Notes: generated by a model from the sequence alone, not told the origin. A stretch of DNA of 32,000 nucleotides from Candidatus Thorarchaeota archaeon (GCA_048882505.1 JBHLRO010000018.1:1-32000); one strand, 5' to 3'; positions 6,426 through 10,092 are shown, numbered from the stretch's first letter. Made by a program: numbers and translations.

Positions 6426-8192
6426 ATGATTTTCACAAACAGAGCCAAACGGTGGCTCTCTAAAGCACAGGCAACTGAAATTCCTCTTTTATTACCACAA
6501 GAAGACCGTACCGGGATTGCCGAGTTCCTGAGAGAAAAAATCGAAGCCAATGAGGTCTTTGGTATTGTTACTCCAGATGATACTACTTTCTTCCCTGATA
6601 AGTATATTGAACAAAACCTACGGCTCCAACTCCAAAAGCAGGGCTTCATTGACATCTGTGCTTTGATTGACCTGACCCAAGGTAAACTACCTGGGCGGAT
6701 ATTGGAATTGAAAATTCTGGCGCATGTCCAGGAAATAGATGGGTTTTTGGACATTATTTTTCGACGTTTTTTCACACCGCAGGGGGCAGAAAATTTCTTG
6801 AAACAATATTTAGCGAATAAGACCGTTGTGCCCTTAAAAACGATTTTGAATGACCTGTATTGGGGAGAAGACTACGTAGAAGCCATTTTAGACCTTCTAT
6901 CCGAGAAAAACCTTTTCCGTGGATACCTTGATCCAATTAAACAGCGATTATATAATTTTACAAACCTGAATTTCACTTCAGAAGTTGATCGGGAGAAGGC
7001 GAATAAGCAGCTAATTCGCTATATCAAGAGAAGCTTTCAACTGGGCGCCGAAGTAGCTATCAGTGATATTTGTGGGTTGACGGGATTTTCCCAAGAAGAG
7101 AGTATTCGTTTCCTGCAGAAAAATCGTGGATCCCTTAGTTTTGTGATTTCAACTAAGCGAAATTATGTATATCCCACTTTAGAGATCGTAATCAATATTT
7201 TGAGAGATCTTATTGTCTATCGAAAAGTTCCAATTGCATTCTGGGAACAGCGGCTTGATGTGGCAAAAATCGAGCTTTTAGGGCTATTACGAATCTTGAA
7301 TGGCAGCTTGAATGGCCAAATTTCGCCAACTACCTATTCAGGCCCTCTCCTACGCGAATGGTTTCGGAACGGTATTGATATCGAGGGATTGGCTGCAGAT
7401 CTAAATCTTGATCCCCTTCTTCTCCTCGGGCGCATCCGAACACTGGGAGAAAAATACGGATTAAGATTCATTGCGGGCGATACGGCCAATCCCTTTCTCC
7501 TCAAGGGCGTCCTAAGTTTCGAGATTTTTTGTCAGGTGGATACTTCTTCTTATCAAGATCCACATCTGTATTTTGAGTGCCAAAACTGTAAGCGAATATT
7601 GTGTAGCAATTGCAGGTCGGCGGGAAGCAAGCATAGCTGTCCTTTTTGTGAGAACATAGCGGCGTTCATTATTGATCTTCCACGGCACTGCCCTGATTGT
7701 AAGATTACCTACACGCATTCTTACAACCTAATAAGTACGGAAGAATGCTATTTCTGTAAAAAAGGCCCTTTGGCGAGCGGGTGGTTACCACCAAAGCCAA
7801 TATCCGATAAGCTCCTGGATCCCCATCTTTCAGAATTATTAGCTCATTCAGATTCAGAAATCCCATTGCAGGCGATAATTTCGACTTTGGGATGGTCTGA
7901 TGCAGAAGTAGTTGCCCATCTTGAAGAAATGATTATTTCTAACCAAATCAATGGCAATATCGACATATGGAATACTTCCCTCCGTCTTGAGCGAGCGCCC
8001 ACCTTGTTTCGTTGCAGTGTTTGTGAAAAACTTAAGACAGATAAAACTCGGTATAAATGTGTATCATGTAGCAATAACGTTTGTCTAACATGCCATGGTG
8101 ATATGCATACAGTAGGAATGGTTATCTGTCCCCAATGCAGTGGAGAGTTAAAACCAGAGGACTCTGGTACGTCATCTTCGAGTCAGGATTAG
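6426..8192 (+). CDS. Winged-helix repeat (UFL1/DDRGK1/PCI-like) protein with two RING-like and one extra Zn module; candidate E3 ligase
   Basis: Repeats such as LPGRILE...EIDGFLD...FFTP, YLANKTVVPLKTI...FRGYLD and EEMIISNQINGNID. Zn modules: C-x2-D-x12-C-x2-C-x4-C-x2-C-x8-C-x2-C (7530-7649), CPDC/CYFC, and C-x2-C-x11-C-x2-C-x4-C-x2-C-x11-C-x2-C (8013-8138). Confidence 0.62.
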   Translation: MIFTNRAKRWLSKAQATEIPLLLPQEDRTGIAEFLREKIEANEVFGIVTPDDTTFFPDKYIEQNLRLQLQKQGFIDICALIDLTQGKLPGRILELKILAHVQEIDGFLDIIFRRFFTPQGAENFLKQYLANKTVVPLKTILNDLYWGEDYVEAILDLLSEKNLFRGYLDPIKQRLYNFTNLNFTSEVDREKANKQLIRYIKRSFQLGAEVAISDICGLTGFSQEESIRFLQKNRGSLSFVISTKRNYVYPTLEIVINILRDLIVYRKVPIAFWEQRLDVAKIELLGLLRILNGSLNGQISPTTYSGPLLREWFRNGIDIEGLAADLNLDPLLLLGRIRTLGEKYGLRFIAGDTANPFLLKGVLSFEIFCQVDTSSYQDPHLYFECQNCKRILCSNCRSAGSKHSCPFCENIAAFIIDLPRHCPDCKITYTHSYNLISTEECYFCKKGPLASGWLPPKPISDKLLDPHLSELLAHSDSEIPLQAIISTLGWSDAEVVAHLEEMIISNQINGNIDIWNTSLRLERAPTLFRCSVCEKLKTDKTRYKCVSCSNNVCLTCHGDMHTVGMVICPQCSGELKPEDSGTSSSSQD

Positions 8193-9091
8193 CTGAGTTG
8201 GCTCTTATATTGCGCTAACTTCTTGGAGTACTTATCAGATAGTTCCTTGTATTTATCTTCTGAAATCTTCCCATTAAGGAACATTTCATCTGCTTGTTCC
8301 ACCATGAGTTCATATTTCTTGATTTTCTCTGCAATGTCATCAAACTGTTCTCGCTCTTCTGCCAAAGATCGCTGCTGTTCTAGAACCTGTTTTTCTACTT
8401 CATATGCCAGCAGAGATTGATACTCATCGGGAACCTTAAATCCCCCTATATCCAGTCCAACAAGTTCCAAGCCCCAGCGAGAAGTCTCAGGACCCAATTC
8501 CGCACGGGTCTGGATTTCAAGGCTGCGTCGTTCTCTCAATAATTCCGGAACTGTGTAACGGGACATCACATGCTTGACGGCCCCAATTATGGTTTGTTTC
8601 ACCCAGTTCTTTAGTTCCTCGCTTGAATAATACTGCCTGTGAGAGACTACATTTGAAATGAAATTTCGGGGATTAACTATCCTCATTCGGGAAATTCCGT
8701 AACAACCTATCATGACATTGTCTGCGGATAAAATCCCAGGCGTTCCCCATCTGATAACGAATTCTCGTTTACTTACCCAGATTATTTCGCTACCCGGGCG
8801 TTTTGCTAGCTTATCCAGTTCATATATTCCACTTCCTGCAACACCTACCAGTGTACCCGACTGTAGAAGTACAGCATTTTCAGGATCTTTGACAATAAAG
8901 CCATCATCTTTACGGAAACCATCTCGATCGTCAGAACGAACTCGTGAAACTAGCGAACCTCCATTCTCTTCACTAAAATCAGAGCTTAAGATGGTTTTTC
9001 CACGAAATCTTTTGGAACCAAGGTGTACTGCGTCGCCAATCCTGCGGAACAATCCCCCGAATTTCTCGACTTCTGTCATCTTTTTCACCAA
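8189..9091 (-). CDS. SPFH/Band-7 domain protein (YdjI-like, no TM) with C-terminal coiled coil and SHOCT-like tail
   Basis: FIVKDPENAVLLQSG...SGIYEL, FVIRWGT, RIVNPRNFI and RWGLELVGLDIGGFKVPDEY are typical of the soluble SPFH subfamily. Tail LNGKISEDKYKEL. Alternative ATG at 9079. Confidence 0.82.
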   Translation of the reverse strand: MVKKMTEVEKFGGLFRRIGDAVHLGSKRFRGKTILSSDFSEENGGSLVSRVRSDDRDGFRKDDGFIVKDPENAVLLQSGTLVGVAGSGIYELDKLAKRPGSEIIWVSKREFVIRWGTPGILSADNVMIGCYGISRMRIVNPRNFISNVVSHRQYYSSEELKNWVKQTIIGAVKHVMSRYTVPELLRERRSLEIQTRAELGPETSRWGLELVGLDIGGFKVPDEYQSLLAYEVEKQVLEQQRSLAEEREQFDDIAEKIKKYELMVEQADEMFLNGKISEDKYKELSDKYSKKLAQYKSQLS

Positions 9092-10092
9092 TCATCGCCA
9101 TAAAGGCCAGGAAAGTAGTACTGGTATCCCGAATCAAGAGAGGAAACTTTTCTTGCAATCTTTTGCTTAACTAGACCTTCCAAGACTCGTATCACACGTT
9201 GCTGTTCCCATTTTGTGTTTAAAACAACATCTTCAAGTGTAACAAAACCTTTGTCAACTGCAAGACTAAAAACGCGTTCAGCATCTTTACCCAATGAAAC
9301 GGGTACAAATTCAACGATTTTGACCCCTGAACGTTCTGAAATGCCCTCGATCAGTGATTGTTTCTGCAGATTTTTACACGCGTTTTCGATGTCCTTGACA
9401 GAGAACTTCACATCAGGAACCTGATCTTTTAGTGCGGTATAAAGGTTTGCAAGAGAAATATAGCCTCCGGAACTTGCGCGCAGATTTTTTCCATATTGGA
9501 GAACTAAATCTGAGATTTGGTCTCTAAATTTGCCCCTACCAAACAAACGGGGTCTTTCAGTTGCATCTAGCGCTGTGATTGTTAAAGCCCTACCTTCCTT
9601 ACGTAAAAGTTCTCTTTCAAGTTGCTGGATCCGCGTATCATAACGCTTTTGAAGATCCCTGATCTGTTCAGTCGAAACGCTGGCGCCATCGGCCAATTTT
9701 TGCTGAATATGGATTACTTCCCCCAAGCGAGCGATATGTTCACCAATTTCCTTTATGGTATTGCGGACCTCAATTCCTTCTTCACCAAAATCAAGATCTT
9801 CTGCTAGCTTTTGTGACTGTTCTGCAATTCTTTCACAGAGCACCGAGGCCAATAATTGGGCTACTCGAATTTCGCCACTTGTCTGGAGATCGGACTTGGT
9901 CTGGTCAGGATGAAGAATAAAATCAGGTATTGTTTCCGAACTGTAACGGATTTCTTCAAATTTCGTAAATAGATTCATAGAAATATCCGCAGCACTTCGG
10001 GCTTTTGTTGAAATACTATTGTTTAAGGCAATTAACGCCTTATTTGCCTTCATAAAATACTCTTGCAACGCTCTGAATCTCCAGAGGATCAA
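9085..10092 (-). CDS. ESCRT-II Vps22/Vps36 (EAP30)-family protein with long N-terminal helical/coiled-coil extension
   Basis: C-terminal half GRGKFRDQISDLV...SSGGYISLANLY...DIENACKNL...VEFVPVSL...GFVT...KWEQQRV...YYFPGL matches the tandem winged-helix EAP30 pattern. Likely ATG at 10053. Confidence 0.8.
   Translation of the reverse strand: MILWRFRALQEYFMKANKALIALNNSISTKARSAADISMNLFTKFEEIRYSSETIPDFILHPDQTKSDLQTSGEIRVAQLLASVLCERIAEQSQKLAEDLDFGEEGIEVRNTIKEIGEHIARLGEVIHIQQKLADGASVSTEQIRDLQKRYDTRIQQLERELLRKEGRALTITALDATERPRLFGRGKFRDQISDLVLQYGKNLRASSGGYISLANLYTALKDQVPDVKFSVKDIENACKNLQKQSLIEGISERSGVKIVEFVPVSLGKDAERVFSLAVDKGFVTLEDVVLNTKWEQQRVIRVLEGLVKQKIARKVSSLDSGYQYYFPGLYGDDW

Follow-up and report, generated by a model that had tools for sequence, protein, structure and literature searches.

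A long Vps22/EAP30 paralog paired with an SPFH gene in Asgard archaea and its association with ubiquitin-like conjugation genes

A stretch of 32,000 nt from Candidatus Thorarchaeota archaeon (GCA_048882505.1, JBHLRO010000018.1:1-32000; the window) was analysed for two adjacent minus-strand genes, one encoding a long divergent paralog of Vps22 (EAP30 family, here named EAP30L), a protein of the endosomal sorting complex ESCRT-II, and the other a protein of the SPFH family. Judged from sequence and gene order, the two genes are a conserved bicistronic module. A link of the pair to ubiquitin-like protein (Ubl) conjugation cascades is well supported by genomic evidence because the pair occurs in UFM1-type operons, co-occurs with a UFC1-like E2 and is syntenic with a ubiquitin-type cluster in Hodarchaeales. 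The pair appears to be a conserved accessory to protein tagging that stands outside the classical ESCRT machine. The whole account, in which an SPFH scaffold with docked EAP30L would recruit Ubl-conjugation machinery, is given a probability of about 0.5. The assembly is 94.5% complete, and its placement in Hodarchaeales was taken from the source names of close homologs.

The gene pair and its predicted proteins

The first-pass annotation of the window had proposed a tight same-strand pair, with the EAP30-like open reading frame (ORF) ending at 9085 and the SPFH ORF beginning at 9091 or 9079. This arrangement, with EAP30L upstream, was confirmed by the sequence and by a conserved junction (Table 1). 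EAP30L was read from a TTG codon; the public gene call begins 8 codons later, at 10068, and gives 327 aa. The SPFH ORF spans 8189-9091 and 300 aa if TTG 9091 is used, and Met5 of this frame (ATG 9079), invariant in an alignment of 14 orthologs, is the conserved start. The EAP30L stop codon, TGA at 9087-9085, is separated from ATG 9079 by a spacer of 5 nt and is overlapped by a GGTGA motif (9089-9085) complementary to the 3' end of the genome's own 16S rRNA, GGATCACCTCC. The stop/(A)GGTGA/ATG junction, with a gap of 5-12 nt, was kept in the examined loci of the genus down to about 61% protein identity. Co-translation of the two genes by translational coupling is plausible and consistent with these features. 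A promoter and terminator scan found no more sites than in shuffled sequence, the consensus patterns being bacterial and the host archaeal. Upstream of EAP30L, TTTTTAAG at 10131-10138 could be an archaeal TATA box.

Table 1. Coordinates of the features of the window, and of fused tag-E2 ORFs in loci of other Asgard classes.
Feature	Position	Strand	Description and basis
EAP30L, long divergent Vps22/EAP30 paralog	9085..10092	-	335 aa from TTG 10092; ORF, Pfam, phmmer, Foldseek, VIA; full-length genus orthologs
N-terminal helical region of EAP30L, residues 1-165	9598..10092	-	AlphaFold2; bundle 2-134 and helix 142-165 leading to the winged-helix core
Tandem winged-helix (Vps22-type) core of EAP30L, residues 181-335	9088..9552	-	VIA, phmmer, invariant residues
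GGTGA Shine-Dalgarno-like motif	9085..9089	-	Overlaps the EAP30L stop; 5 nt ahead of ATG 9079
SPFH (Band_7_1/YdjI-type) protein	8189..9079	-	About 296 aa from conserved ATG 9079; longest ORF from TTG 9091
Conserved basic segment VEKFGGLFRRIGDAVHL near the SPFH N-terminus	9020..9070	-	Hydrophobic moment; candidate peripheral membrane- or partner-binding element
SPFH1/SPFH2 core, residues 64-219	8435..8902	-	AlphaFold2 secondary structure; Pfam; Foldseek alignments to SPFH domains, rmsd 2-3 Å
C-terminal long helix 222-272 and second helix 278-299	8195..8428	-	AlphaFold2; resemble the helices that form wall and cap in SPFH cages
WHZn588, winged-helix/zinc-finger protein	6426..8192	+	588 aa; weak Pfam PCI match, Cys-rich C-terminus
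Ubiquitin-type cluster	961..5844	mixed	Pfam; context only
JAB	1798-2340	-	
E2	2368-2913	-	
263-aa protein	3380-4171	+	
Ubl	4213-4518	+	
Uba1/NAE-type E1	4603-5844	+	
Fused tag-E2 ORFs	L064:3784-4602, L065:3484-4299, L072:10175-10987, L074:2996-3808		

The family assignments proposed earlier for the two genes (Vps22/EAP30-like and SPFH) were upheld by Pfam, phmmer and Foldseek. EAP30L carries two consecutive winged-helix (WH) domains together with similarity at the level of the EAP30 family: it matched Pfam EAP30 (PF04157) with 35.3 bits (cut-off 26.8) over residues 182-310 only, all of the aligned long paralogs (24/24) matched the same profile, and phmmer returned human SNF8/Vps22 at E = 4e-10. 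The AlphaFold2 (AF2) model, built on a 24-sequence alignment (mean pLDDT 77), is arranged as a four-helix bundle, a further helix, a disordered linker and the two WH domains. Human and yeast Vps22 were the first Foldseek hits of this model (5e-8), followed by Vps36 (3e-4) and then Vps25. VIA-align superposed residues 181-335 on residues 88-244 of human SNF8 (2zme_A) with Z 16.6, a root-mean-square deviation (rmsd) of 3.4 Å over 155 residues and 26% identity. The residues G185, D234, L242, A278, G282, G322, F327 and P328 were invariant across the long paralogs. Structure comparison gave only generic helical-repeat matches (Z 9-11) for the N-terminal bundle, to which no fold was therefore assigned. 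In a collection of 1.84 billion cluster representatives its sequence found only 8 matches, 6 with E below 1e-5, so that the bundle is lineage-restricted at the sequence level.

The SPFH protein matched Pfam Band_7 with 65 bits (residues 66-241) and Band_7_1 (PF13421, the YdjI family) with 49.2 bits (cut-off 24), the latter over profile positions 68-205 only; an ortholog in another class matched the full Band_7_1 profile. This score and the hydropathy profile confirmed the earlier description of a YdjI-type protein without a transmembrane (TM) segment: neither an N-terminal TM segment nor a hairpin anchor was found, the highest 19-residue Kyte-Doolittle mean being 1.15, and EAP30L likewise showed no TM segment (maximum 1.05). 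In the AF2 model (pLDDT 83), extra N-terminal beta-strands precede the SPFH core, which is followed by a 51-residue helix and a second helix; the predicted structure thus has an SPFH domain and then long helices, as cage-forming SPFH proteins do. Foldseek aligned the model with full-length chains of the cage-forming stomatin, HflK/C, prohibitin, flotillin and erlin (1e-9 to 6e-13). Ring- or cage-shaped assemblies are known for stomatin, HflK/C, flotillin and erlin. The second C-terminal helix bears a SHOCT-like motif, MFLNGKISEDKYKEL, which was read by eye in the window protein; Pfam SHOCT matched one other-class ortholog only, weakly and below the cut-off (E = 3e-4).

Distribution of the pair and its relation to the ESCRT cluster

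The neighbourhood of EAP30-SPFH pairs was surveyed, and the pair recurs across Asgards. Full-length EAP30L was present in 20 of the 21 other genomes of the same genus (family f1), each with the SPFH gene directly after it; the 21st assembly holds an SPFH gene fragment only. One genome of the sister family f2, G022, has two copies of the pair. The pair was also found in three further Heimdall-class families, f3, f5 and f6. It occurs in five genera of f3, with proteins 18-29% identical to those of the window. The EAP30L variants of f5 and f6 (L053:9123-10184, L054:2456-3535, L052:5129-6208) keep the helical region and the first WH domain (WH1), and a Cys-rich zinc ribbon replaces the second (WH2); a profile made from the f5 variants matched the window protein at 5e-10. 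An SPFH-profile search of 400 Asgard genomes recovered the subfamily in 77. Of 20 loci from other Asgard classes, 18 have the SPFH gene immediately preceded, at a distance of 16-80 nt and in the same orientation, by an EAP30L-type gene of 350-490 aa; in another locus this gene is one gene away, and the short contig of the last shows none. Pairing unique to this genome is ruled out by the loci of the genus, of families f2, f3, f5 and f6 and of the other classes.

The N-terminal bundle of EAP30L is homologous between the two Hodarchaeales families (f1 and f2). By sequence profiles it showed no relation to the N-termini of the f3 proteins and only a weak one to those of family f4, which also has a long EAP30L. 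A single in-frame TAA breaks the second EAP30L of G022 (L040:4979-5989, plus strand, contig C105) into two ORFs (147 and 184 aa), and the SPFH gene that follows (216 aa) is intact; the interruption may reflect decay of a duplicate or a fault of assembly. In genome G076, the zinc-ribbon variant of EAP30L is divergent from an operon of SPFH, UFM1-like, E1 and JAB genes.

The window gene had been read initially as ESCRT-II-like. Its identity as the ESCRT-II subunit of this genome was not sustained: contig C11 (G000:C11:37163-44378; L009:7163-14378) carries a canonical ESCRT cluster that includes a separate Vps22 and a Vps25, and EAP30L falls in another paralog group. The cluster encodes a UEV/Vps23-like (E2-like) protein, Vps28, Vps22, two Snf7, Vps4 and Vps25, and the Snf7 genes of the genome are confined to this contig. 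Its Vps22 has 258 aa and matches EAP30 over its full length with 64 bits. A tree of 53 EAP30-family proteins was built by quick IQ-TREE maximum likelihood, with SH-aLRT support only. One clan (SH-aLRT 99) unites the 15 canonical Vps22-like rows, and every long or SPFH-linked form falls outside it; the window gene therefore represents a distinct paralog lineage. EAP30L as the genome's ESCRT-II subunit was rejected, given the separate Vps22/Vps25 of C11, the separate clan and the lack of Vps25 or Snf7 in the loci examined. An assignment of EAP30L as a Vps36 ortholog was also rejected: its N-terminus is all-helical in the AF2 model and has no GLUE/split-PH domain, Foldseek ranked Vps36 (3e-4) behind Vps22 (5e-8), and phmmer recovered no Vps36 chain at E <= 1.

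The eukaryotic ESCRT-II subunit Vps22/SNF8 and the Asgard Vps22 proteins of about 240-260 aa (Hatano et al. 2022, PMC9192718) share with EAP30L a tandem WH core preceded by a helix and an EAP30 match above the cut-off. EAP30L differs in an additional N-terminal helical bundle of about 130 residues, in its separate clan, in its SPFH partner and in having no Vps25, ESCRT-III or Vps4 alongside. A role in an alternative ESCRT-II was weighed against this background. EAP30L would pair with itself or with the canonical Vps22, there substituting for the missing Vps36, and would bind Vps25 and recruit ESCRT-III to SPFH-marked membrane patches for budding or repair. The closeness of the tandem WH core to Vps22 fits such a role, as do the absence of an Asgard Vps36 and the undiscovered partner of Odin Vps22 left open by Hatano et al. 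2022 (PMC9192718), and the report by Makarova et al. 2024 (PMC10936438) that certain archaeal ESCRT loci contain SPFH genes. The role is nevertheless quite improbable: none of the examined loci has Vps25, Snf7 or Vps4 beside EAP30L (an AAA ATPase alone lies upstream in two), the clan is separate from canonical Vps22, the N-terminus is a helical bundle with no GLUE/PH domain, and similarity to Vps36 is weaker than to Vps22. In addition, the f5 and f6 variants have exchanged WH2, the Vps25-binding half in eukaryotes, for a zinc ribbon.

Two further observations concern the EAP30 family and ESCRT genes of this genome. The C11 cluster also includes a 448-aa opposite-strand protein without a Pfam match. 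A third, weaker EAP30-profile match lies at G000:C10:28357-29031 (minus strand; 225-aa frame, E = 1.6e-12 to the EAP30L profile); similar frames of 225-235 aa occur in several related genomes and may represent a tandem-WH paralog.

Ubl-conjugation genes beside the pair

In the f3 operon, a UBA5-like E1, a JAB protein, a UFM1-like tag, a UFC1-like E2, EAP30L and SPFH are encoded in this order. The E1 matched human UBA5 at E = 1e-52 and MoeB at 1e-24. The 88-aa tag ends in RGVVG; in the E2 an ICH[DE]H motif is invariant, and Pfam UFC1 was matched weakly (22 bits, below the cut-off). The UFM1-like and UFC1-like identities are based on this weak match, on motifs read by eye and on the adjoining UBA5-like E1; phmmer of the two proteins against PDB sequences returned nothing meaningful. 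The full cassette is seen at L047:1454-6187 (plus strand), in L050, L055, L056 and L058, and, for other classes, in L064-L075 and L078. At least a UBA5-like E1 is present in 12 of the 20 other-class loci; E1, UFM1-like tag and UFC1-like E2 are found together in 10, and JAB too in 9 of those. Four other-class loci encode tag and UFC1-like E2 as one fused ORF of about 270 aa with the tag N-terminal (Table 1), and such a fusion would need cleavage before the C-terminal Gly of the tag became usable. A 360-aa zinc-ribbon protein (p360) often accompanies the other-class cassette.

Co-occurrence was compared at two levels; as genomes that are related do not count as independent cases, the numbers are descriptive. 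Among the 83 genomes of this class, matches to the UFC1-like profile were confined to 10 non-Hodarchaeales genomes, precisely those with the pair, and were absent from the 50 others; all 23 Hodarchaeales genomes were negative (0/21 in f1 and 0/2 in f2). In the phylum outside Hodarchaeales, where the sets were compared by hand, both the pair and the E2 were found in 29 genomes, the pair only in 25, the E2 only in 7 and neither in about 316.

These counts bear on the possibility that the two genes are incidental neighbours, with EAP30L regulating adjacent genes as a winged-helix DNA-binding protein and the SPFH protein acting as a separate scaffold of proteases or membrane proteins that has no Ubl tie. 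Single WH domains of the EAP30L model match many MarR/ArsR-type repressors (Z 9-10), EAP30L orthologs from another class weakly match HTH_IclR and TrmB, and SPFH proteins are generally known as common partners of proteases. However, the Vps22 match spans both WH domains and lies well above the single-WH matches, which reached only about Z 10 in VIA-align, the adjacency persists across classes at 20-30% identity, presence and absence of the pair track the UFC1-like E2 exactly in 60 genomes of the class, and no NfeD-type or FtsH-type protease gene is adjacent. Mere adjacency of this kind is therefore regarded as very unlikely.

The Hodarchaeales setting differs. A six-frame profile search of the genome found no UFM1-like, UFC1-like or p360 gene, and the UBA5 profile gave generic E1 matches only (1e-30). 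The pair lies instead beside a ubiquitin-type cluster (Table 1), whose E1 was identified as Uba1/NAE type by comparison with PDB entries; the whole ubiquitin-type block was syntenic in 6/6 sampled genomes of the genus. Between the cluster and the pair lies WHZn588, for which the ESM Atlas gave no usable match. NCBIfam likewise returned zero matches for EAP30L, the SPFH protein, the WH/Zn-finger protein and the f3 operon proteins. The convergent stops of the SPFH gene (TAA 8191-8189, minus strand) and WHZn588 (TAG 8190-8192) overlap by 2 nt at 8189-8192, leaving no intergenic room for terminators, so that the two transcripts should overlap. The order aIF2-alpha, GNAT, EAP30L, SPFH and convergent 588-aa gene was kept in 21/21 genus loci examined. 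In G022 of the sister family, EAP30L, SPFH and the WH/Zn-finger gene are tricistronic and co-directional, with a 0-nt gap after SPFH. WHZn588 is likely, from gene arrangement, to be a third member of the module in this order, and the G022 operon is the best evidence for it.

The first-pass annotation had the pair serve the neighbouring Ubl cascade. A general association with such cascades was borne out, the pair lying in or beside Ubl clusters in several Asgard classes; its usual partner is the UFM1-type cascade, which is absent here. The link to the neighbouring cluster itself rests on the synteny within one genus and on the EAP30L-SPFH-WH/Zn-finger operon in one sister-family genome.

Proposed role and related systems

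The following mechanism is proposed. The SPFH protein would form an oligomeric ring or cage scaffold through its long C-terminal helices, probably at the cytoplasmic face of the membrane, where the basic N-terminal segment or a partner protein would hold it. EAP30L, made in step with the SPFH protein, would dock on the SPFH oligomer, and its winged-helix core would offer a platform for Ubl-conjugation machinery. This machinery would consist of UBA5-like E1, UFC1-like E2, UFM1-like tag and JAB protease in most Asgard lineages; in Hodarchaeales the pair would be joined to the WH/Zn-finger protein, a candidate E3 or adaptor, beside the ubiquitin-type E1-E2-Ubl-JAB cluster. The analysis shows the anatomy of the genes, their family membership and paralogy, the conservation of the pair and its linkage to Ubl cassettes in gene order and phyletic pattern; we infer oligomerisation, membrane attachment, binding of EAP30L to the SPFH protein and any role in conjugation, as well as an action of the pair in membrane microdomains.

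Several observations weigh against this account. TM segments are absent from both proteins, and the module includes no gene for a membrane partner; YdjI itself requires YdjG/H for its recruitment to the membrane. The N-terminal stretch of the SPFH protein that had been described as amphipathic stands as a sequence property: residues 8-24 are basic and have the highest alpha-helical hydrophobic moment of the protein (0.77), and the segment is conserved in f1 and f2 only. AF2 places residues 15-19 in a beta-strand, however, and the stretch includes three Gly, so that a membrane-binding helix is at most possible. The pair is patchy outside this genus, family f4 has its long EAP30L without an adjacent SPFH gene, and about 25 other-class genomes hold the pair without a UFC1-like E2, so that a Ubl cascade is not obligatory. 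In the window, the pair is convergent and not co-transcribed with the ubiquitin-type genes, and their synteny, documented within one genus only, could be inherited gene order. Stand-alone pairs are moreover followed directly by a variable gene (L066, L068, L076, L077, L079) or, in L083, preceded by one. The variable genes encode a tetratricopeptide repeat (TPR) protein of 723 aa, unknown proteins of 628 and 655 aa, a leucine-rich repeat (LRR) protein of 510 aa, a NosD/beta-helix protein of 1176 aa and a double zinc-ribbon protein of 495 aa.

The variable-gene pattern is that of a fixed core with a swappable recognition subunit.

Patchiness and variable downstream repeat-domain genes also speak for an optional stress or anti-virus module, in which the pair would be the core of a conflict system and a third gene (TPR, LRR, beta-helix, WH/Zn-finger or Ubl cassette) would give the sensing or effector specificity, comparable to bacterial Bil/CBASS-type E1-E2-JAB systems or the PspA-YdjI stress response. 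Bil operons comprise E1, E2, Ubl and JAB, and the UFM1-type cassette is made up of the same parts. Yet PADLOC 2.0 (2023 library) gave no match at E <= 1e-3 for EAP30L, SPFH or the WH/Zn-finger protein, and its E1 and JAB matches were generic and far weaker than those to eukaryotic UBA5/Uba1. The module is also present in 21/21 genomes of the genus at a fixed place among housekeeping genes (aIF2-alpha, GINS), and toxin or nuclease domains are absent from this locus. A conflict system is accordingly judged unlikely; it would, if true, be a new kind of archaeal defence core.

The pair had originally been compared with the Bacillus pspA-ydjGHI operon. B. subtilis YdjI (SamI), encoded in that operon, is described as a Band_7_1 SPFH protein linking PspA to the membrane (Scholz et al. 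2021, cited in PMC10936438; PMC13713150). The window protein resembles YdjI as a TM-less Band_7_1 SPFH protein with a C-terminal helical SHOCT-like tail and a gene beside one of an ESCRT-related family. The systems differ in the partner, which is ESCRT-II-type (Vps22-like) here and the ESCRT-III-type PspA for YdjI, and in the link to Ubl-conjugation genes here. The analogy was not maintained, as no PspA/ESCRT-III or YdjG/H-like gene accompanies the pair, the neighbours being GNAT, aIF2-alpha, WH/Zn-finger and ubiquitin-type genes.

Two eukaryotic systems offer closer parallels. In DDRGK1-UFL1(-CDK5RAP3) at the endoplasmic reticulum, winged-helix scaffold proteins place a Ubl E2 at the membrane, and in erlin1/2-RNF170 an SPFH cage recruits a zinc-finger E3. 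By analogy, the DDRGK1-UFL1 platform and erlin-RNF170 would be the closest functional parallels, in logic and apparently not in ancestry, and ESCRT-II proper would be a poor one. None of the 24 long paralogs matched Pfam DDRGK or UFL1 at E <= 1, and Foldseek aligned EAP30L with the UFL1-DDRGK1 chimera 8b9x at E = 2e-2 over 134 columns, a generic WH similarity compared with 5e-8 for Vps22. This genome also differs from the DDRGK1-UFL1 system in having no UFM1-type cascade, whereas most Asgard pairs sit in a UBA5/UFC1/UFM1-like operon.

Hodarchaeales are often placed as the lineage closest to eukaryotes. A tentative and rather unlikely extension of the account is that the pair would be the membrane-anchoring or E3-like platform of an archaeal proto-UFMylation, a forerunner of DDRGK1-UFL1 or of erlin-type SPFH/E3 systems, rewired in Hodarchaeales to a ubiquitin-type cascade through the WH/Zn-finger protein. 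If this extension were true, a prokaryotic Vps22-family protein would couple ubiquitin-type tagging to a membrane scaffold outside ESCRT. The question raised is whether ESCRT-II-like winged-helix proteins had already linked Ubl tagging to membrane scaffolds before the rise of eukaryotes. As the proteins are small and soluble, the idea is directly testable.

The literature had described Asgards with a single Vps22/36-like gene (Hatano et al. 2022, PMC9192718). UFC1 and UFM1 were reported from eukaryotes only, and UFL1 and DDRGK1 were traced to Asgards (Picchianti et al. 2023, PMC10183829), while Ufm1 homologs were reported in nine Asgard clades by Köstlbacher et al. 2026. Makarova et al. 2024 (PMC10936438) noted diversity among ESCRT-II paralogs and mentioned SPFH only for euryarchaeal 'Meth_adaptin' loci and in the PspA-YdjI parallel. 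A full-text literature search found no paper that covers the EAP30-SPFH pair or connects it with a UFM1-type cassette. The analysis adds a second Vps22-family lineage across the Asgard phylum, locked to an SPFH gene and usually accompanied by a UBA5/UFC1/UFM1-like cassette. The Hodarchaeales version is distinct in being universal in the genus, in having lost the UFM1-type enzymes and in lying beside a ubiquitin-type cluster and a candidate E3.

The 'Meth_adaptin' ESCRT loci (PMC10936438) resemble the module in having an SPFH protein, there with coiled-coil and zinc-ribbon parts, among winged-helix proteins, and in one Asgard variant of the pair the SPFH protein likewise carries a zinc ribbon at its N-terminus. 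Vps4, ESCRT-III and adaptin-like genes, found in those loci, are absent from the module here, whose link is to E1, E2 and Ubl genes.

A GNAT acetyltransferase gene recurs beside EAP30L. It lies upstream in both Hodarchaeales families (165 aa; window 10256-10753, minus strand), and in f4 a 271-aa GNAT lies directly downstream of EAP30L in two loci (L043:4092-4907, L044:4128-4943) and within about 3 kb in others.

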